The notes below the pieces were generated by a model. The model was not told where the DNA came from. It saw nothing but the letters and a program-made list of their open reading frames with translations, and did no database searches. Shown in pieces: positions 11,903-21,177 of a DNA stretch of 64,000 nucleotides. Every line of letters starts with the position of its first letter. Position 1 is the first letter of the stretch. The position numbers were made by a program, and so were the translations under genes. The DNA is from an uncultured Acidobacteriota bacterium (GTDB lineage Bacteria; Actinomycetota; Acidimicrobiia; Spongiisociales; ZC4RG35), in NCBI GenBank assembly GCA_963734115.1, contig CAVTFV010000008.1, positions 211,581 through 275,580 of the forward strand, written 5' to 3'.

Positions 11903-12544
11903 CTAGGCGGCGGTGGGACCGGTTGGGGCCAGCCCTCGAAGGGTGGTGGCGAGAGCCTGGCGGAACACGTCCCCTCCGGCATCGGGGGAGTCGATCAGCC
12001 AGCCAGACAGTGGTCGGCGAGCGGCGTGGGTCAGCTCCAGACTCACCGCACCATGGGCCGCAGTCCACAGCGTGTAGGCCGCGACGAGAGGGCTCTCGGC
12101 CACGATCATCTCTTGTTCCATTGCCTCGCTCACCGCCTCGAACACCATCGAGAACGTCGATTCGAGCACATCTGAACGCTGCTGGGGCGGCGGGTCGAAG
12201 CCGACGATTCGCTCGAACATCAACGAGTAAAGGGCGGGATTGGCCACAGCGAACCGGCGATAGGCGAGTCCCAGCTCGATGATCCGGCGCAGCGGGTCCC
12301 GGCGATGCTCGACCGTCGCCATGGCCAGGGCGAGACGCTCGAAACCAGCGGCGTACACCGCGTTGAGAAGTCCCACCTTGTCGCCGAATCGCGAATAGAC
12401 ACACATGGTCGAGACATGGGCGGCAGATGCGACCCGACGCAGGACCAAGGCCTCGGTGCCCTGGTCGGCGAGAAGACGGATCGCCGCTTCGATCAGCTCG
12501 GTCCGAACGGTGTCGCGTTCACGCGTGGGGGTTGCCATATTCAA
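11903..12544 (-). CDS. TetR-family transcriptional regulator
   Basis: N-terminal HTH (LVLRRVASAAHVSTMCVYSRFGDKVGLL). It is divergent from the Mo-oxidoreductase gene. Confidence 0.8.
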   Translation of the reverse strand: MNMATPTRERDTVRTELIEAAIRLLADQGTEALVLRRVASAAHVSTMCVYSRFGDKVGLLNAVYAAGFERLALAMATVEHRRDPLRRIIELGLAYRRFAVANPALYSLMFERIVGFDPPPQQRSDVLESTFSMVFEAVSEAMEQEMIVAESPLVAAYTLWTAAHGAVSLELTHAARRPLSGWLIDSPDAGGDVFRQALATTLRGLAPTGPTAA

Positions 12545-12554
12545 TAACGCGGAG

Positions 12555-12570
12555 TATAACGAGTGTTATA
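12555..12570. promoter_or_regulatory. inverted repeat TATAAC-GAGT-GTTATA in the tetR / Mo-oxidoreductase divergent intergenic region; candidate TetR operator
   Basis: Perfect 6-bp arms with a 4-nt spacer in a 60-bp divergent promoter region. Confidence 0.35.
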
Positions 12571-12605
12571 GCGGAAGTGTAGAGCAGTCATCAACGAGGA
12601 AGGTC

Positions 12606-13598
12606 GTGGGTCGCAGGACGAATCTAGCGCTGGCGGTGTTGCTGGTCACTGCAGTGGTCTCAGGTCTGGCCAGTCAGGCGATCGGGGTCGATTGGCCACT
12701 CGACACCGCCGTCATCCATGGGGCGGTCGCCCTGGCGATCCTGCTCTTGTCGCCGTGGAAGACCGGCATCGTCCGGCGTGGGTTGAGTAAGAAGCGACCG
12801 GGACGCGTCTTCTCTCTGGCCCTTCTCACAATCGTCCTGATCACGCTCGCCTCGGGTCTCCTCCATGCCCTCGGCGCGATCTCGCGCATCGGCCCGCTGA
12901 CGGTGATGCAGATCCATGTGGGAGGCGCCGTCCTCGCACTCGGTCTCGCCACCGACCATTTCCGGCGTCATCCGGTCACACCCAAGCACTTCGATGTCGA
13001 CCGGCGTGCATTTCTCCGGACCTCGGTCCTGTCCGTGGCCGCGGCCGGTATCTGGCTCGCCTGGGAGGGGACCCTCCAGGCGCTGGAGGCGCCGGGGAGG
13101 GAGCGCCGATTCACCGGCATGCACCAGAGAGGTTCGCATGACCCTGCCGGTCTGCCCACGACCTCCTGGCTCGATGACCGTGTGCCGACGATCGAAGGCA
13201 ATGAATGGGCAGCGGTCATCGCGGGACATGAACTGAGTCTGGCCGACCTCGAGACGATGCCTCAGGACACCTTCCCGGCCATCCTCGATTGCACCGGGGG
13301 CTGGTATTCGGAGCAAGAGTGGGCCGGAGTCAGACTCGATCGATTGATCGATCCCGCAGGCAGCCGCAGCTTCGTCGCCTGGTCGGCGACCGGGTATGCA
13401 CGAAGATTCCCGATCGCCGACCTGGAGAGCACATGGCTGGTGACACGTCTCGGCGGCGAGCCCCTGAGCCCGGGACACGGCTTCCCGGCTCGGATCGTGG
13501 CGCCGGCTAGACGTGGGTTCTGGTGGGTGAAGTGGGTAACCCGGATCGAGCCCTCACCGGTGCCGTGGTGGCTTCAGTCGCCGTTCCCGCTCACCTGA
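12606..13598 (+). CDS. membrane-anchored sulfite-oxidase-family molybdopterin oxidoreductase (MsrP/YedY-like catalytic domain fused to an N-terminal 4-helix His-containing membrane domain)
   Basis: C-terminal GHGFPARIVAP..RGFWWVKWVTRIE Moco-domain signature. N-terminal hydrophobic helices carry conserved His residues. GTG start with GGAAGG upstream. Confidence 0.75.
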   Translation: MGRRTNLALAVLLVTAVVSGLASQAIGVDWPLDTAVIHGAVALAILLLSPWKTGIVRRGLSKKRPGRVFSLALLTIVLITLASGLLHALGAISRIGPLTVMQIHVGGAVLALGLATDHFRRHPVTPKHFDVDRRAFLRTSVLSVAAAGIWLAWEGTLQALEAPGRERRFTGMHQRGSHDPAGLPTTSWLDDRVPTIEGNEWAAVIAGHELSLADLETMPQDTFPAILDCTGGWYSEQEWAGVRLDRLIDPAGSRSFVAWSATGYARRFPIADLESTWLVTRLGGEPLSPGHGFPARIVAPARRGFWWVKWVTRIEPSPVPWWLQSPFPLT

Positions 13599-13603
13599 CG
13601 AGG

Positions 13604-14440
13604 TCAGCCCCTCTCGACCGGGACGTTCACCAGCGATCCATACTCCGTCCAGGACCCGTCGTAGTTCTTGACATCCTCGTGGCCGAGGAGTTCGGTCAGG
13701 ACGAACCAAGTATGTGAGGACCGCTCGCCGATGCGGCAGTAGGCGATGATCTCGCCGCCAGTGACGCCGGCCCCCTCGTACAGCTCCTTCAACTCGTCCA
13801 CCGACTTGAAAGTGCCGTCCTCGTTGGCTGCCTTGCCCCACGGGATGTTCTTCGCCCCTGGCACGTGCCCCGCCACGTACGGCTGCTCCTGAGGGAGATG
13901 GTCCGGGGCGATCTTCTCGCCACTGAACTCCTCCGGTGAGCGGACGTCGACGAGCGTGGCCTGTCCCTGCACTTCGAGCACATGGTCCCGGAACGAGCGG
14001 ACCTCGGGTCGCTCTGCCCCGGTGATCGAGAACTCGGTCGGTGCGATGTTCGGGGACTCCGACTCGAGGGGCAACGAGTCGATCTGCCACTTCTTGCGGC
14101 CCCCGTCGAGCAGCTTCACGTTCTCGAAGCCGCGGTACTTGAGCAGCCAATAGGCATACGCGGCAAACCAATTGTTGTTGCCGCCGTAGAGGACGACCGT
14201 CGTGTCGGGACCGACCCCGGCCGCGGACAACAGCTTGCTGAAGCCCTCCTGGTCGAGATAGTCACGGCGCGTTGGGTGGTGGAGGTCGTCGGACCAGCTC
14301 CAGGCGATGGCGCCGGGGATGTGGTCTTTGTCGTAGACCGTGGCGTCCTCGTCTACCTCGATGACCCGGATGTTCGGGTCACTCAGATTGGCTTTGAGCC
14401 AGTCGGTGGTGACGAGGGCGTCGGGGTTTGCATAAGCCAT
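13604..14440 (-). CDS. sseA: thiosulfate/3-mercaptopyruvate sulfurtransferase (two rhodanese domains)
   Basis: 278 aa with two rhodanese domains and an active-site Cys in CRIGERSS. Confidence 0.85.
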   Translation of the reverse strand: MAYANPDALVTTDWLKANLSDPNIRVIEVDEDATVYDKDHIPGAIAWSWSDDLHHPTRRDYLDQEGFSKLLSAAGVGPDTTVVLYGGNNNWFAAYAYWLLKYRGFENVKLLDGGRKKWQIDSLPLESESPNIAPTEFSITGAERPEVRSFRDHVLEVQGQATLVDVRSPEEFSGEKIAPDHLPQEQPYVAGHVPGAKNIPWGKAANEDGTFKSVDELKELYEGAGVTGGEIIAYCRIGERSSHTWFVLTELLGHEDVKNYDGSWTEYGSLVNVPVERG

Positions 14441-14877: not shown

Positions 14878-15801
14878 TCAGTTGAGGCCCTCGAACTCGG
14901 GCAGACCCAAGGCCAGGTTGATGTTCTGCAACGCCTGCACCGCCGCCCCCTTGAGCAGATTGTCCTCGGCGGCGATAACCACTGCGTTGTGGCCATCGGC
15001 GCTGGTCTCGAATCCACCGACAATCACGCCCTGGTGTTCCGCCCCGTCTCTCAATTCCGGGATCGTGTTCCGGATCTCGATCAGTGGCTCCTCGCCGTAC
15101 ATCTCCTCATAGCGCGCCATGATCTCGATAGAGGTCATAGCCCGACCCAAGGGGATGTGGGCCGTCACGAGGAGACCACGGAAAGCCGGGTGGACGTGGG
15201 GGATGAACCGCACCGGGATCCCGAGATGTCTGACCGTCTCCCGCTCGTGGTTGTGTCCCACCAGCTTGTACGGCATCAGATTGTCTCGAAGTTGGTCGGG
15301 ATCGTTGCGCGGTCCGGGCGTGGTCCCCGCGCCGGAGTACCCGGAAACCCCGAACACCGCCGGCACGCCGGAGATGGCCTCGAGTAGGGGAGCGAGCGCG
15401 ATCTGGGTTGCAGTGGCGTAGCACCCCGGGTTGGCGATCCGCCGCGCCCCGTTCAGCTTCTCCCGGAAAAGCTCTGGCAGACCGTACGCCCAGGTGTCGT
15501 CGAATCGATGATCCGCGGAGATATCGACGATCACGGTCTCTTCGTCGATGCCGTCCACATAGGGGTCGCCGGCACCATCGGGGAGGGCCAGGACCACAAC
15601 GTCCAGGTCGCGCCCCGCCAGATCCTCAGAACCGATCGACTCGTAGCGGACGTCATCCAGCCCTGGCACTGGCTCACCGGCCAGTTCCCGGGACGCGGCG
15701 AAGACGAGCTCTAGAGACGGTTGATCCCTGATCAACCGCACCAACTCCGCTCCAGTGTGGCCGCGGGCTCCCACCACGCCAACGCGGTAAGAGTCACTCA
15801 T
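14878..15801 (-). CDS. argC: N-acetyl-gamma-glutamyl-phosphate reductase
   Basis: Start MSDSYRVGVVGARGHTG, active-site GCYATA. The ATG overlaps the stop of the upstream gene (ATGA). Confidence 0.9.
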   Translation of the reverse strand: MSDSYRVGVVGARGHTGAELVRLIRDQPSLELVFAASRELAGEPVPGLDDVRYESIGSEDLAGRDLDVVVLALPDGAGDPYVDGIDEETVIVDISADHRFDDTWAYGLPELFREKLNGARRIANPGCYATATQIALAPLLEAISGVPAVFGVSGYSGAGTTPGPRNDPDQLRDNLMPYKLVGHNHERETVRHLGIPVRFIPHVHPAFRGLLVTAHIPLGRAMTSIEIMARYEEMYGEEPLIEIRNTIPELRDGAEHQGVIVGGFETSADGHNAVVIAAEDNLLKGAAVQALQNINLALGLPEFEGLN

Positions 15802-17143
15802 CGTCGTCGCCGACGAAGGATGGGGGCAGGGTCGCGATCGACTCGACACGGGGTGCGATGCGGTCGAAGTTCGTCTCGCCTTTCCAGAATACGGTCCACG
15901 GCCCACGCTTCACGGAGCCATCGGCCTCGTCGACATAGAAGGAGTTGAACCGATTGTCGGTCCGCGACCGCCAGTAGAGCACAGGGTGATCGGCGATCAG
16001 CTGTGCCCAGACGGTCCTGGCCAGCCCCTCACCACGGGCGTCCTCGAGGATGGCGAACTTGTCCAGGTACGAGACGTCGCCGACACGGCTGACGATGGCC
16101 CCGGCTCTGAGGCTCTCCGATAGATAGGCGCTGTGCAGGTCGAGGTGCTGCCACCACCCTTCTTTCAAAGGCCGCCCGAATGCCTCCTCGACCAGCTTGA
16201 CCACCTGACTCCCGTCGATCGAGTCGGGATCGGTGATTCGATCGATGAGCTCTCCCTTCCGCACCAGAGTGCCCGACCCGCCATGGGTGAAAAGCTCTTT
16301 GACCAGGCCCGACGGGGTGGTGATGGAGACGGAGGTGGAAAGCGGAGTGTCGTCCAGCAGCCGTTTGATCTCGGCCAGCTTTAGCCGCATCCCGGAGTGG
16401 ACCCAGTCCTGGGTCATGAGGTGGTCGTAGTCGGAGGCGAGGTTGATCGACTCGATCGGCCGCGCATCGTCGTCGAGGAGGCCACCGACATCGACCAGGA
16501 AGATGATCTTCAGGGGCTGCACCGCATGTACGAGCGCTCGGGTCGCTGCGTCGGCGTTCATGTTGACGATCTGCCCGCCCGGGGCGACACCGAGACAGGT
16601 CAGGATGGGAATCGCACCGGAATCGACGATGGAGCGGATGAGGGCGATGTGCACCTCCGTCGGCTCGCCGACGAGCCCGTACTTGTCCCGGTCGACGTAG
16701 TCGGCTTCGAAGGCGCCGGCCGTGAGACCGTGGGCGGCAACCCCCTGCTCCCTTATCGCCTCGACGAGGAGGATGTTCTGCTCGATGAAGGTGTCGCGGG
16801 CCGCGTCGAGCACGTCGGGCTCGGTGACTCTGAGCCCGTCGATCCTGCGGCTCTCGATCCCACGCTGGTCGAGTGCACGGTCCAGCTGCGTGCCGCCACC
16901 GTGAATCACGATCGGGGTCAGCCCGACGGTATGGAGAAAGGCCAGGGCAGCGGCCGTCTCTTCCAGATGCTCGGCGAGGATCGCTCCACCGATCTTGATC
17001 ACGGCGAAACGTGACCGGTCAACTTCGGAGAACCGTTGCAGGTAGGAGCGGATCTCCCTCCCATCACTCATGTTGGAGAGGAGATGGACGATGGTCTGGC
17101 GCACGTCCCGGCTCTGTGAAGCCGGAACCCGATCTTCGCTCAT
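15794..17143 (-). CDS. argA: ArgA-type N-acetylglutamate synthase with fused amino-acid-kinase and GNAT domains (possibly bifunctional NAGS/NAGK)
   Basis: AAK domain (FAVIKIGGAIL, IVIHGGGTQLD) followed by a C-terminal acetyltransferase domain. I placed the start at the internal ATG (MSEDRVPASQ). Confidence 0.8.
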   Translation of the reverse strand: MSEDRVPASQSRDVRQTIVHLLSNMSDGREIRSYLQRFSEVDRSRFAVIKIGGAILAEHLEETAAALAFLHTVGLTPIVIHGGGTQLDRALDQRGIESRRIDGLRVTEPDVLDAARDTFIEQNILLVEAIREQGVAAHGLTAGAFEADYVDRDKYGLVGEPTEVHIALIRSIVDSGAIPILTCLGVAPGGQIVNMNADAATRALVHAVQPLKIIFLVDVGGLLDDDARPIESINLASDYDHLMTQDWVHSGMRLKLAEIKRLLDDTPLSTSVSITTPSGLVKELFTHGGSGTLVRKGELIDRITDPDSIDGSQVVKLVEEAFGRPLKEGWWQHLDLHSAYLSESLRAGAIVSRVGDVSYLDKFAILEDARGEGLARTVWAQLIADHPVLYWRSRTDNRFNSFYVDEADGSVKRGPWTVFWKGETNFDRIAPRVESIATLPPSFVGDDDE

Positions 17144-18138
17144 TGCCCGATCAGATTGGTCATGATCGCTTTCTGGACGTGGAGACGGTTCTCGGCTTCG
17201 TCGTAGGCCATGCAGCTCGAGCTGTCGAACACGTCGTCGGTCATGATGACGTTGCGTCTCATCGGGAGGCAGTGGCTCACCACCGCATCGCTTGTCATCG
17301 CCATCTTGCGCGAGTCGACGATGAAATCCTGGTACTTGTCCCGGATCGGCTTTTCCTCCTCCCACCGCCCGAAGAAAGGGATCGCTCCCCAGCTCTTGGC
17401 GTACACGACATCGGCTCCCTCGTAGCCGGTCTCGATGTCATAGGTCACGGTCACGCTTCTCCCGTTTGCCCCTGCATCGCGGGTGGCGATGTTCATGTAC
17501 CGGTCGTCGAGCAGAAAATCCTCCGTCGGGCAGAGCAGGGTGACGTTCATCCCGAACTTGGCGGCGATCAGGAGTGCAGAATTTGCCACCGCTGTGTTCA
17601 ATGGTTTGGGGTGGTAGCTCCAGGTCAGCAGATAGCGCTTGCCGTCGAGTGGCCCGAGACGCTCTTGGAGGGCCATGACGTGGGCCAGCTCCTGACAGGG
17701 ATGGGTGATGGTCTCCATGTTGATGACGGGAACGTCGGCGTGCGTGGCGAAGGCCTGGAGGATGGTGTCCTTGCGGTCCTCCTCCCAGTTCTCGAATTTG
17801 GGAAACGCCCTGATCCCGATCAGGTCGCAGTAACGGGAGAGGACCTTGGCCGCCTCTTTGACGTGCTCCTCGGCGTCATCGAGCATGATCGCCCCGTCTT
17901 CGAACTCGAGCGGCCACATACCGCCGGAGGGGGAGAGCACGACTGCGTGCCCTCCCAGCTGGTTGGCGCCGACGTCGAAGGACGTGCGCGTTCGCAGCGA
18001 GTTGTTGAGGAAGAGCAGGGCGACGGTCTTCCCCTCGAGTGCCTTGCCATATGGTGATTCCTTGAGACGGCGCCCCTCGTCAACCATCGACTGAAGCTCG
18101 GGTCGGGTCCAATCGAAGGTGTTCAGGAAGTGGCGCAT
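17140..18138 (-). CDS. argF: N-acyl-ornithine (AOTCase/SOTCase-like) carbamoyltransferase
   Basis: SLRTRTS carbamoyl-phosphate motif, HPCQ and HCLP motifs. It lacks the DxxxSMG ornithine-binding motif of classical OTCase. I placed the start at the internal ATG (MRHFLNTFDW). Confidence 0.8.
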   Translation of the reverse strand: MRHFLNTFDWTRPELQSMVDEGRRLKESPYGKALEGKTVALLFLNNSLRTRTSFDVGANQLGGHAVVLSPSGGMWPLEFEDGAIMLDDAEEHVKEAAKVLSRYCDLIGIRAFPKFENWEEDRKDTILQAFATHADVPVINMETITHPCQELAHVMALQERLGPLDGKRYLLTWSYHPKPLNTAVANSALLIAAKFGMNVTLLCPTEDFLLDDRYMNIATRDAGANGRSVTVTYDIETGYEGADVVYAKSWGAIPFFGRWEEEKPIRDKYQDFIVDSRKMAMTSDAVVSHCLPMRRNVIMTDDVFDSSSCMAYDEAENRLHVQKAIMTNLIGQ

Positions 18139-18332: not shown

Positions 18333-19670
18333 CTACCCGCGTTGGGTCTCGTAACCCTTCTCCGCCCACTCTGTGATGCCCCCGGTGATGCTGTGGGCGT
18401 CCCGATAGCCGAGTGAGTTGATGTAGAGCACCCCAGGCAGGGAGATGTTGCCACGGGCGCAGACGATCAGCACCGGGGTGTCGAGACCTGCGGGCAGCTG
18501 GTCCTGGTTGTCCGGTAGCTCCATGAGAGGGATGTTGATGGCTCCCGGGATGTGCTCCTGAGCGAACTCCTCGGCCGATCTGACATCGACCACGAAGGGC
18601 CTCTCTGCCTCCCACCGGTCGTGGGCCGCTTCGGCATCGACGGTGAGATGGGGGTTGTGCCGGGTGTGCTCGATGATGGCGTCGAACAGCTCTTCCCGGC
18701 GGCTCTTGGCCCGAGGCAGCGCCGTTGGAGCCAGCCCGGGGATGTGCCTGGCCATCGACGAGGCGTACTTGAAGGCGTTGTCCGGGAACATCACGACGAC
18801 CCTGGTCCCGGGCGCATCGGGAACCATCGCCAGGGCGCCGGCGAGAGCCATCCCCGAGCTCGGCCCGGCAGGGATGCTCTCCTCGCGGTTGAGTCGCAAC
18901 GTAAGCGCGTAGGCGTCCTCGTTGCCGATCTCGATCATCCCGTCGTATTCATCGGGGAGGAAGAACTCGGTCTGCTTGAGCTGGCGGATGCTGCGCACTC
19001 CGGGGATGTCGTGGCCCTCGCCCGGGTGGACCCCGATGACCTGCACGCTGGAGCTTTGCTCCTTGAGGAACCGCCCGGTACCCGTGATCGTGCCGCAGGT
19101 CCCCATCCCGGCCACGAAATGGGTGATCGCCCCGTCCATCTGACGCCAGATCTCCGGCCCGGTGGTCCGATAGTGGGCATCGGGGTTCGACGGGTTCCGG
19201 TACTGGTTCAGCATGAGGAAGTCCGGCTTCTCGGCGATCTCCGTCGCCCGGGCGATCGCACCCTCGGGTGCCCACGGAGCGGGGCAGAGGTCGTCCTCCA
19301 ACTCCTCGACGTTGGCACCGAAGAATCGGAGCATCGTCCGCTTCTCGATGGGGATGGCGCTGGACAGCGGAGTGGTCAGGTCATAGCCGAGGAGATTGCC
19401 CATCATGACCAGGCCGAGACCGGTGTTGCCTGACGTTGGCTCGACCAGATCTTCGTCGGTCAGTTCACCCTGCTCCCGGGCCTGCTGGATCATGTTGGAG
19501 GCGATTCGGTCCTTGACGGAGCCGAACGGGTTGTACCACTCGAGCTTGACGTAGACCTCGGTGTGCTGGAACGGGACAACGTGGTTGAGCTTGACTATCG
19601 GAGTCGGGTTCTCGGCGTTCGAGAGCAGCCCGAGCATCGAGTCGTAGATGCGGCGTGAGTGGTCGTTCAA
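18333..19670 (-). CDS. cysteine synthase (PLP fold-type II, CysK/CysM-like) fused to a C-terminal rhodanese domain
   Basis: N-terminal region with the catalytic Lys in PFGSVKDRIA and EPTSGNTGLGL. C-terminal region FVVDVRSAEEFAQEHIPGAINIP...VCARGNIS with the rhodanese catalytic Cys. TTG start. Confidence 0.85.
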   Translation of the reverse strand: MNDHSRRIYDSMLGLLSNAENPTPIVKLNHVVPFQHTEVYVKLEWYNPFGSVKDRIASNMIQQAREQGELTDEDLVEPTSGNTGLGLVMMGNLLGYDLTTPLSSAIPIEKRTMLRFFGANVEELEDDLCPAPWAPEGAIARATEIAEKPDFLMLNQYRNPSNPDAHYRTTGPEIWRQMDGAITHFVAGMGTCGTITGTGRFLKEQSSSVQVIGVHPGEGHDIPGVRSIRQLKQTEFFLPDEYDGMIEIGNEDAYALTLRLNREESIPAGPSSGMALAGALAMVPDAPGTRVVVMFPDNAFKYASSMARHIPGLAPTALPRAKSRREELFDAIIEHTRHNPHLTVDAEAAHDRWEAERPFVVDVRSAEEFAQEHIPGAINIPLMELPDNQDQLPAGLDTPVLIVCARGNISLPGVLYINSLGYRDAHSITGGITEWAEKGYETQRG

Positions 19671-19707
19671 TTGCGCTCGCCTGTTGCCACTCTCAAGGAT
19701 AGGAGAG

Positions 19708-19725
19708 CCGGGGGTATTCCCCCGG
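19708..19725 (-). terminator. GC-rich hairpin CCGGGGG-TATT-CCCCCGG about 7 nt after the SIMPL gene stop; candidate intrinsic terminator
   Basis: 7-bp perfect stem with a 4-nt loop, followed on the minus strand by a CUCUCCUAUCC tract. Coordinates are good to +/-3 nt. Confidence 0.35.
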
Positions 19726-19731
19726 GGCGGT

Positions 19732-20358
19732 TTACTCCCGGAATCCGAACTCCACCTGGAGTGTTACCGTCACCGATGATGTCCCCGGCTGGATCGGGGT
19801 CGATGCTCTCTCAGGCGCCATGTCGGCAGCCATCATCCTCGGCATCGGCAGCACCGGACCCTGGATCGTCTCAGTTATGGAGGTCGCCTTACCGAGCGTG
19901 TGCCCGGATAGGGCCGCCAGTTGCTCTGCCTTGGCCTTGGCGTCGTTCCAGGCCGCTTCCCGCGCCCTTGCCAGGAGTGACGTCTCGTCGGCGACGCCGA
20001 AGGTGAGGCCGTTGACCCTGGTCTCGTCGCCCCCGGCGGAGGCTATGGAGTCGAGCAGTGGGCCGGTGGTTGCGATGTCACGAAGCTTGGCTCGGACGGT
20101 GTTGCTCACTCGATAACCCAGCAACCGCTGGCTGTTGGTGGAGTAGTCGTACTCGGGGCGGATGGAGTATTCGGTGGTCGCCATGTCGTCGGCGGCAATA
20201 CCACCCGCGGTGAGGGCCGAGGACACAGCCTCCGCCCGTTCCGCTGCAATCCGCGTGGCCTCCTGAACTGTGTCGGAGAGGGCCGAGACACCGACATCTA
20301 ATTCGACGATGTCCGGGGCGGCGCTTGCCTCCCCGGCAGCTGAAACCGCGATACCCAC
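19732..20358 (-). CDS. SIMPL/DUF541-domain protein (no signal peptide)
   Basis: LLGYRVSNTVRAKLRD...AWNDAKAKAEQLA core. It is a paralog of the next gene but lacks the N-terminal roughly 58 aa. Confidence 0.75.
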   Translation of the reverse strand: MGIAVSAAGEASAAPDIVELDVGVSALSDTVQEATRIAAERAEAVSSALTAGGIAADDMATTEYSIRPEYDYSTNSQRLLGYRVSNTVRAKLRDIATTGPLLDSIASAGGDETRVNGLTFGVADETSLLARAREAAWNDAKAKAEQLAALSGHTLGKATSITETIQGPVLPMPRMMAADMAPERASTPIQPGTSSVTVTLQVEFGFRE

Positions 20359-20397
20359 AAACGACCTCCAGATCGCGCCTGCGGTGGAGCCTATCCC

Positions 20398-21177
20398 TCA
20401 GCCGGCGAGGCCGAACTGGACCTGGAGTGTGATGGTCACAGCCGACGTCCCCGGCTCGATCGGGGTCTCGACCGCCCGCTCGGCCGCTGCATCAGCGGCG
20501 TAGGGGATCGGAATCGGAGGCATGCTCACAGTCTCGGTGATCGTGGTTGCCTCGCCCAGCGTCTGCCCGGAGAGCTCGGCGAGCTGGCTGGCCTTGGTCA
20601 TCGCGTCATTCCATGCCGCCTCCCTGGCGGCGGCGACCAATTCGTCGTTGTCCTCGATGCTGAATGAGAGCCCGTTGACTACGACATCGTCCCCACCTGC
20701 GACAGCGGCTGCGTCCAGGACTGCGCCAGTGCTGTCGAGGTCCCGGATCTTCGCTTCGACCGTGTTGCTGACCCGATACCCGATGAGCCGCTGTTCGTTG
20801 CTCGAGTAGTCGTATTCGGGGTATATCGAATAGTCGGTGGTGGTGATGTCCTCTTCGGCGACACCGTTGGAGGTCAGTGAATCGATGAGTGCCTGGGCCT
20901 TCTCAGCCGCCGTGGTGGCTGCCTGGTCGACGGTCTCACCGAGGACCGAGACACCGAGGCCGACCTCGACGGTGTCTGGCGTGCCGGTCACCTCGCCCAT
21001 CCCCGATACCGAGATGCCCGAGGTTGCCTCTTGCGATGTGTTCACCGTGATCTCTTGTGGCGTCGACCCGGCTGCGGTGCCACAGGCGGCGAGAATGACG
21101 GCCAGGCCGCCAATAAGTGCGATGTTGCGAGGGCGTGTGGTCCATGTCATGCCGCTTGGACGAGTGGGCGGCCTCAA
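20398..21177 (-). CDS. SIMPL/DUF541-domain lipoprotein
   Basis: Signal peptide with lipobox (LAVILAACG), then LIGYRVSNTVEAKIRD...AWNDAMTKASQLA. Confidence 0.8.
   Translation of the reverse strand: MRPPTRPSGMTWTTRPRNIALIGGLAVILAACGTAAGSTPQEITVNTSQEATSGISVSGMGEVTGTPDTVEVGLGVSVLGETVDQAATTAAEKAQALIDSLTSNGVAEEDITTTDYSIYPEYDYSSNEQRLIGYRVSNTVEAKIRDLDSTGAVLDAAAVAGGDDVVVNGLSFSIEDNDELVAAAREAAWNDAMTKASQLAELSGQTLGEATTITETVSMPPIPIPYAADAAAERAVETPIEPGTSAVTITLQVQFGLAG

Follow-up and report, generated by a model that had tools for sequence, protein, structure and literature searches.

Why should a cysteine synthase carry a rhodanese, and from what does such an enzyme take its sulfur? The question is raised by a gene on the minus strand at 18333..19670 of a 64-kb stretch of contig CAVTFV010000008.1 from an uncultured bacterium, the whole of which is hereafter called the window. 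In this gene, a CysM-like enzyme dependent on pyridoxal 5'-phosphate (PLP) is fused to a single rhodanese domain. In the textbook route, the last step of cysteine synthesis is an attack of free sulfide on an aminoacrylate; an earlier note on this DNA had suggested that the fusion channels sulfane sulfur directly into the product. Our analysis indicated that the window protein is best described as a widespread, uncharacterised variant of cysteine synthase, some relatives of which appear to be selenoproteins. As to how it works, we regard it as an even bet that it is a persulfide-relay cysteine synthase of the CysM lineage, which would take its sulfur from a protein-bound persulfide, at the S0 level, and not from free sulfide.

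The coding sequence specifies 445 aa from a TTG start; both its full length and its N terminus (MNDH...) are common to its relatives. Pfam assigned residues 17-297 (18780..19622, minus strand) to PALP, the fold-type II PLP domain (E 5.8e-62; 210.1 bits for PF00291 against a gathering cut-off of 35), and residues 346-437 (18360..18635, minus) to a single rhodanese domain (E 5.1e-16; 59.4 bits for PF00581 against 22.2) whose sequence matches are GlpE-type and other single-domain rhodaneses. Between them, residues 298-345 (18636..18779, minus) form a poorly conserved linker, with 10% of its columns at least 90% conserved in an alignment of 85 family members. All of the elements expected of a fold-type II PLP enzyme were found by alignment and coordinate checks: the Schiff-base lysine, Lys53, in FGSVKDRIA (SVKDR; 19512..19514, minus), the TSGNTG loop with the Asn that binds the substrate carboxylate (residues 79-84; 19419..19436, minus), a glycine-rich phosphate loop, and the Ser272 equivalent. 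Among the 85 aligned sequences, there is little or no variation at K53, T79-G84, G190-T194 (as GTCGT) and S271/S272, and Arg226 (18993..18995, minus), in the same column as Arg210 of Escherichia coli CysM, is conserved in 85/85. The rhodanese active-site loop, CARGNIS (18441..18461, minus), opens with the catalytic Cys404 (18459..18461) and follows the family consensus C-x-[RIV]-G-[NK]-x-S; a cysteine opens this six-residue loop (C404-ARGNI-S410 in the window protein) in 85/85 and 120/120 relatives. The catalytic set of both domains (K53, TSGNTG, Q156, S271/272, R226 and C404) is intact and invariant. The earlier description of both parts, with their catalytic lysine and cysteine, is borne out in this respect, and the rhodanese cysteine whose loss on careful alignment would have told against it is present throughout. 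An AlphaFold model of the protein reached a predicted local distance difference test score (pLDDT) of 82.8 and a predicted template-modeling score (pTM) of 0.66, with lower pLDDT values in the lid described below (67-76) and in the linker (53-65, at residues 311-330). A Foldseek search of the PDB returned single-domain matches only, and no solved chain with both PALP and rhodanese was among them.

Beyond the usual catalytic residues, the family alignment revealed three invariant cysteines, namely Cys404 of the rhodanese and two in the PLP domain, Cys129 and Cys192. Cys129 (TGC, 19284..19286, minus; Cys in 78/78 Cys-form relatives) lies in an insertion, EELEDDL-C-PAPWAPEGAIA (residues 122-140; 19251..19307, minus), which faces a gap in the alignment with E. 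coli CysM. We call this insertion a lid because it precedes the G-M-x-G-A element that lines the active-site entrance in CysK structures. Cys192 (19095..19097, minus; 85/85) lies in the PLP-phosphate loop, which reads GTCGT in the fusion family, whereas it reads GTGGT in canonical CysK and GTTGT in CysM. Cys129 is proposed to be a relay or resolving residue.

A look-up with the exact sequence of the window protein matched no contig on record, but PALP and rhodanese are combined in every one of the 120 best database relatives (62-91% identity). A census of one genome per species yielded over 597 matches, of which the top 80 were without exception fusion genes (53-93% identity, nearly all of them matched over their full length). 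At least 80 species-level genomes, from about 10 phyla, thus have the fusion; the phyla include Acidimicrobiia and other Actinomycetota, Acidobacteriota, Gemmatimonadota, Myxococcota, Planctomycetota, Verrucomicrobiota, Bacteroidota/Ignavibacteria and others, with the isolate Propionicimonas sp. T2.31MG-18 among the hosts. Clustering at 50% left a single representative of the family, and no full-length relative outside it exceeded 46% identity. Given this single cluster and its breadth across phyla, we regard the fusion as common, old and sharply delimited. The view that the architecture is not commonly annotated therefore had to be given up: it is shared by all of the top 120 matches, and JGI names it "cysteine synthase/rhodanese-related sulfurtransferase", while the NCBI labels are "pyridoxal-phosphate dependent enzyme" or "cysteine synthase B". 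The earlier note had also allowed that the architecture might prove common and already characterised as ordinary CysK. Common it is, but characterised it is not, as our literature search found no description of a PALP-rhodanese fusion or of a cysteine-synthase selenoprotein, and the window protein scores below the NCBIfam cut-offs given further on. Apart from this family, we observed a second, distant PALP-rhodanese fusion (P0228 and P0248, 488-500 aa) that has the lid EDICPDP and is only 36-39% identical, and a lid-Cys protein of 537 aa (P0137) that is extended by about 200 aa at its N terminus and ends in a Cys-rich tail (KDCNCPPTCSGKNGGDCGCNNY).

Evidence on the role of Cys129 came from relatives in which its codon is replaced. 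In seven species genomes the open reading frame (ORF) of the fusion starts about 130 codons late, because of an in-frame TGA at the Cys129 column. The codons lie at L040:10388-10390, L043:10388-10390, L044:2584-2586, L048:7799-7801, L049:10391-10393, L052:10388-10390 and L055:10388-10390, and the genomes belong to Myxococcota, "Deltaproteobacteria", a "Spirochaetaceae" bin and Marinacidobacterales. A pattern scan of metagenome contigs for a TGA followed by codons of PAPGxPEGAI added 37 cases (L088-L124), in each of which the TGA is in frame and the fusion gene is otherwise complete; they fall into two sequence subgroups and bring to 44 the relatives with UGA in place of the Cys129 codon. There is a single TGA, exactly at this column, in genes that are otherwise complete, and the protein is conserved on both sides of it (...EELEDDL*PAPGSPEGAIARA...); the window gene itself has TGC. 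Among the seven genome genes, the dN/dS ratio on either side of the TGA was 0.04-0.27, with dS values of 0.5-2.3, indicating that both halves are translated and constrained by purifying selection.

The TGA-form relatives also have a hairpin just 3' of the UGA that agrees with the consensus rules for the bacterial selenocysteine insertion sequence (SECIS). Its stem begins 10 nt past the UGA, and its apical loop contains a G. The free (synonymous-site) pair of the stem, which joins the third positions of codons 134 and 137, is formed in 25/25 distinct TGA-form sequences (C-G in 21 and U-A in 4; none of 2000 shuffles did as well), whereas among Cys sequences it is formed in no more than 35/77, where 29 would be expected. 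Folding energy after codon 129 was rejected as a discriminator between the two forms: Cys forms fold a similar hairpin, since the APEGA codons are self-complementary in GC-rich genes. No tRNA-Sec was found in the 10-kb flanks of the TGA-form loci, and their neighbourhoods contained no conserved partner gene. Taken together, the TGA-form relatives look like selenocysteine (Sec) forms of the enzyme. Exchange between Sec and Cys is a standard mark of a reactive, catalytic cysteine, and residue 129 is thus probably reactive and catalytic. The prokaryotic selenoprotein families tabulated in a 2026 review include sulfur-trafficking rhodaneses, DsrE-like proteins, MoeB and YeeE, and none of the entries has PF00291, PLP or cysteine synthase; NCBIfam has no dedicated model. 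The Sec forms therefore appear to be a selenoprotein family absent from both.

The lid cysteine is not confined to the rhodanese fusion. Among the 150 nearest cluster representatives, a DDLCP-type lid was present in several clades, including the following two. The first, abundant in Chloroflexota, has the same lid Cys and GTCGT enzyme with TusA in place of the rhodanese (LCP in 120/120, GTCGT in 118/120, TusA Cys-Pro in 119/120). In three Chloroflexota contexts (fusion genes at L085:7001-8221, L086:7001-8212 and L087:7001-8212), the gene order is Rrf2, canonical CysK, a small sulfite reductase, the reductase of 3'-phosphoadenosine or adenosine 5'-phosphosulfate (PAPS/APS; CysH), PALP-TusA and DUF2061; the start of PALP-TusA overlaps or abuts the stop of CysH, and in one context a serine acetyltransferase-like gene comes after it. 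The second clade is a stand-alone enzyme without a carrier domain (LCP in 108/120, GTCGT in 105/120). In 5/5 contexts its gene is directly followed by a rhodanese gene of 281-322 aa, and all other neighbours differ (modules at L125:6001-8038, L126:6001-7827, L127:6001-7898, L128:4001-5840 and L129:4001-6049). Cys192 is common to both clades.

The second clade also connects the fusion with another gene of the window, a two-domain rhodanese of 278 aa recognised by Pfam at 13604..14440 (minus), with the active loop CRIGERS (13718..13738). The rhodaneses of L125-L127 have the same CRIGERS loop and are orthologous to it (48-53% identity), and in an Acidimicrobiaceae locus (L025) a rhodanese 69% identical to it abuts the fusion gene, directly upstream. 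The earlier suggestion that this protein may feed the same route is supported by the consistent pairing and by the adjacency in L025, and we consider it the probable upstream sulfur donor. The note's term "SseA-type" for it is loose, because it scored 121 bits where the NCBIfam model for 3-mercaptopyruvate sulfurtransferase requires 250, and its loop is of the thiosulfate-sulfurtransferase type. The two rhodanese-bearing genes are separated by three genes (argF', argA/B and argC), not two as had been stated. In sum, one clade of PLP enzymes is tied to persulfide carriers in three ways, by fusion to a rhodanese, by fusion to TusA and by adjacency to a CRIGERS rhodanese, which constitutes Rosetta-stone evidence of a functional link.

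To describe the genomic neighbourhoods of the fusion gene, we clustered greedy non-overlapping ORFs, because the shadow ORFs of GC-rich DNA swamped the raw clustering. A sulfite reductase of assimilatory type is divergently adjacent in 18/85 loci of four phyla (12/13 loci in Planctomycetota, 3/3 in Verrucomicrobiota, 2/17 in Myxococcota and one Acidimicrobiaceae locus, L013, which also has CysG-like, CysH and CysD genes). Rrf2 and IscS/SufS-like genes recur near the fusion in three to four phyla, and the fusion gene closes a suf operon in one Bacteroidota and one Ignavibacteria genome (L053 and L079). In about 25 Acidobacteriota loci, an orthologue of about 64% identity is directly followed by genes for JAB, ThiS and ThiF plus rhodanese. 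All of these neighbourhoods fit a role in cysteine supply, and only the JAB-ThiS-ThiF set of Acidobacteriota points to a particular donor.

The suggested channelling of sulfane sulfur thus has real but indirect comparative support from the Cys/Sec exchange at residue 129, the TusA fusion, the adjacent CRIGERS rhodanese and the sulfite reductase neighbours; the chemistry of the relay, including every step, the sulfur donor, the serine ester and the reductant, is what we infer. First, a sulfurtransferase, for which the CRIGERS rhodanese is the candidate in the window, would be loaded from thiosulfate or another persulfide donor. Second, Cys404 of the fused rhodanese would receive the sulfane sulfur and, third, pass it to Cys129 in the lid, at the entrance to the PLP site. 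Fourth, the PLP domain would form the alpha-aminoacrylate from O-acetylserine or O-phosphoserine in the usual way. Fifth, the sulfur on Cys129 would reach the aminoacrylate, either by direct attack of the persulfide, giving a disulfide between enzyme and cysteine, or as HS- freed inside the closed site by a neighbouring thiol. Finally, another thiol, that of Cys404 or of Cys192, would resolve the disulfide, and the enzyme would be reset by a reductant of the thioredoxin type. Such chemistry is plausible, given reports that glutathione persulfide is accepted by CysK and CysM and that assimilatory sulfite reductases release S0 (PMC13188885), and given that rhodanese-dependent thiosulfate assimilation is known (PMC10215317).

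The most serious alternative is that the protein is an ordinary CysM, making cysteine from O-acetylserine and sulfide, or S-sulfocysteine from O-acetylserine and thiosulfate, while the rhodanese does side work and no relay exists: it would cleave S-sulfocysteine or thiosulfate with release of sulfite, or serve as an appendage with a redox or regulatory function. Among solved structures, Salmonella CysM (2jc3, E 2e-60) and E. coli CysM (2bhs, E 1e-58) are indeed the closest, matched with a template-modeling score of 0.86-0.87 (normalised to the target) and 38-40% identity over the PLP domain, and Arg226 aligns with CysM Arg210. Arg220 of Mycobacterium tuberculosis CysM, implicated in O-phosphoserine use, shares this column, so that the arginine does not discriminate. 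An adjacent sulfite reductase would recycle the sulfite from S-sulfocysteine, and the fused thiol domain could replace the separate thioredoxin or glutaredoxin that E. coli needs to reduce S-sulfocysteine (PMC3528435). However, the window protein scored below every NCBIfam cut-off for CysM (246.1 against 394.2 bits for TIGR01138; 244.8 against 413 for NF008735), for CysK (234.8 against 350.95 for TIGR01139) and for the cysKM subfamily (264.7 against 344.15), which places it in the CysK/CysM branch and in no curated equivalog. Moreover, an ordinary CysM leaves the invariant Cys129 and its replacement by Sec unexplained, unless Cys129 is the nucleophile that cleaves S-sulfocysteine, in which case this alternative merges with the persulfide-relay reading. 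We therefore consider an ordinary CysM rather unlikely.

A second alternative takes the M. tuberculosis pathway as its model. The donor would be a thiocarboxylated ThiS-like protein of the CysO kind, charged by a MoeZ-like ThiF-rhodanese, and the adduct would be cut by a Mec-like JAB protease. The Acidobacteriota loci described above speak for it, operons of this kind that include a cysteine synthase have been catalogued (PMC1779556), and the ThiS-like carriers there (L002:11982-12266 and L003:11746-12072) were observed to end in GG plus three residues (GGGRA and GGADE), which fits a need for processing by the adjacent JAB protease. Nevertheless, in a census of 84 loci the JAB-ThiS-ThiF/rhodanese set was confined to Acidobacteriota and was rejected as a general context: JAB, ThiS or ThiF homologues were found neither in the 64-kb window, nor in the close relatives L001 and L005-L008, nor within 10 kb of the fusion gene in other phyla. 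The Acidobacteriota ThiF already has a rhodanese of its own, and a thiocarboxylate route requires neither a lid Cys/Sec nor a second rhodanese. In addition, the window protein scored lower against M. tuberculosis CysM (160 bits) than against E. coli CysM (202-208 bits). Overall, we give this possibility little credence.

Just as improbable in our judgement is an enzyme working in reverse, which would mobilise sulfur from cysteine or cystine as a persulfide on Cys129 and Cys404 for the synthesis of Fe-S clusters, thiocarboxylates or cofactors. IscS/SufS-like desulfurases, Rrf2, HesB/IscA, the suf operons of L053 and L079, and ThiS/ThiF are among the neighbours, and fold-type II enzymes of the CBS and CysK families can form cysteine persulfide from cystine. 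However, a dedicated cysteine desulfurase is already present at those loci, the strongest neighbour across phyla is the assimilatory sulfite reductase with CysH and CysD, which belongs to the supply side, and the substrate loop and Arg226 are of the synthase type. Finally, the product might be another beta-substituted alanine, as in SbnA, cysteate synthase or O-ureidoserine synthase, with carriers unrelated to the nucleophile. Weak matches to the NCBIfam SbnA and cysteate synthase models, far under their cut-offs, and the canonical CysK of the Chloroflexota operons speak for this reading. Against it, the 85 loci offered no biosynthetic-cluster context and had sulfur assimilation and Fe-S genes as neighbours, and three different sulfur-carrier partnerships are hard to explain in this way, so that we find it scarcely credible.

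Several observations weigh against the persulfide-relay reading itself. In Acidobacteriota, the JAB-ThiS-ThiF/rhodanese operon points to a thiocarboxylate donor. Because the PALP-TusA operons of Chloroflexota have a canonical CysK as well, the product of the lid-Cys enzyme may be something other than plain cysteine, for example S-sulfocysteine or cysteine persulfide. In the window, the immediate neighbours of the fusion are arginine genes whose synteny is limited to close relatives, and the 64 kb hold no gene of sulfate or thiosulfate assimilation besides the two rhodanese-bearing genes. The Sec/Cys residue could serve redox regulation or peroxide handling, and the AlphaFold model leaves the mutual orientation of the PALP and rhodanese domains unfixed. 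If the persulfide relay is nevertheless taken one step further, the lid-Cys/Sec enzymes as a group (rhodanese-fused, TusA-fused and CRIGERS-paired) might form the end of a protein-bound sulfur assimilation without free sulfide, with S0 inserted via residue 129. The sulfane source would be thiosulfate, or APS reductase together with sulfite reductase, and the sulfur would travel on carrier cysteines as far as residue 129 and enter the aminoacrylate directly. Such a route would be the modern counterpart of the old idea of a "carrier-bound" assimilation pathway and would place a selenoprotein family not listed so far in sulfur assimilation; we put it forward as a tentative and on balance improbable extension.

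As for the remaining features of the window, no other cysteine synthase was found in its 64 kb. Downstream, on the strand of the fusion gene, the first gene encodes N-acetylornithine carbamoyltransferase (534 bits, where the cut-off is 288) and the second a bifunctional acetylglutamate synthase/kinase, with argC as the third; the upstream side has a pair of SIMPL genes together with upp and ppc. The same order recurs only in close relatives, with 78-91% identity in DNA, and the synteny with argF', argA/B and argC was accordingly set aside as uninformative about function. The arginine genes themselves (14878-18138, minus) are of the Xanthomonas type (argF', NF003384, 534 bits), in a host whose relatives are labelled Acidimicrobiia, and the long N-terminal extensions given to them by the ORF finder are probably untranslated. 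Two of the close relatives (L005 and L006; CAVQFU010000002.1 and CAVRHE010000007.1), with the same gene order and 84-87% DNA identity over about 20 kb, were deposited as "uncultured Acidobacteriota", a label that looks doubtful because all of the other close relatives are labelled Acidimicrobiia. The tandem SIMPL/DUF541 paralogues (19732-21177, minus), one with a signal- or lipoprotein-like N terminus, are kept as a pair in close relatives. A scan for promoters and terminators gave nothing above chance. A GC-rich inverted repeat that the consensus scan missed, CCGGGGG-AATA-CCCCCGG (19700-19730, minus), lies close behind the SIMPL stop in the 61-nt gap between the SIMPL stop and the fusion gene and may be a terminator without a T-run. 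On the plus strand, 12405-13598 encodes a molybdopterin oxidoreductase of the sulfite-oxidase family with a hydrophobic N-terminal part and weak SoxC/SorT matches. It is convergent with the CRIGERS rhodanese, the two ends lying 5 bases apart, and the same pairing is seen in L001; it could remove sulfite released by a thiosulfate sulfurtransferase.

If the persulfide-relay reading is true, many bacteria of the Acidimicrobiia, Acidobacteriota, Planctomycetota, Myxococcota, Verrucomicrobiota and Gemmatimonadota, and of the Chloroflexota through the TusA form, hand over sulfur to cysteine as a protein persulfide and not as free sulfide. Gene annotation and metabolic models of abundant soil and marine lineages would change accordingly. 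The finding also bears on the current question of whether S0 or H2S is the real intermediate of assimilatory sulfate and thiosulfate reduction (PMC13188885).

Compared with known systems, the window protein is closest to the CysM of E. coli and Salmonella, which is alike in fold and catalytic residues, including the arginine at position 226. However, the lid insertion, the Cys residues at 129 and 192 (GTTGT in CysM) and the rhodanese domain of the window protein are all missing from CysM. CysM is also the isozyme that takes a sulfane-level donor, thiosulfate, to make S-sulfocysteine (PMC3528435, PMC10215317). The PALP-TusA proteins of Chloroflexota, annotated as "cysteine synthase/TusA-related sulfurtransferase" and likewise uncharacterised, are about 42% identical, share LCP and GTCGT, and place a sulfur-carrier domain, complete with its active Cys, where the window protein has its C-terminal rhodanese; they differ in that the carrier is TusA and not a rhodanese, and in their fixed Rrf2-CysK-small sulfite reductase-CysH-(PALP-TusA)-DUF2061 operon. 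The CysM-CysO-Mec-MoeZ pathway of M. tuberculosis resembles the relay in that a CysM-type enzyme is fed by a protein carrier, and acidobacterial orthologues of the window gene lie in JAB-ThiS-ThiF/rhodanese operons (PMC1779556, PMC3227635). In that pathway, however, the E1-like enzyme, and not CysM, carries the rhodanese, a thiocarboxylate serves as donor, and there is no redox-active lid residue.

Rhodanese-dependent thiosulfate assimilation, in which a rhodanese yields glutathione persulfide and then H2S for CysK (PMC10215317), combines the same two activities for the same net task, but with separate proteins and diffusible glutathione persulfide and H2S, whereas the window gene encodes one polypeptide with an additional Cys/Sec. 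The work in PMC13188885 is similar in having persulfide sulfur as the nucleophile towards the aminoacrylate and in its link to sulfite reductase, which neighbours the fusion in four phyla. It differs in concerning ordinary CysK and CysM and a small-molecule persulfide, without a carrier domain or lid Cys, and it does not mention rhodanese. C-terminal rhodaneses that exchange a persulfide with a partner cysteine are found in the CoA-disulfide/persulfide reductase-rhodanese fusions (3nta, 3icr) and in persulfide dioxygenase-rhodanese fusions such as CstB (PMC12934615), and the rhodanese domains of such redox-enzyme fusions appear among the sequence matches of the window rhodanese. In those fusions the partner is a flavoenzyme or an Fe(II) dioxygenase in sulfide detoxification, whereas in the window protein it is a PLP enzyme of the beta-replacement type.

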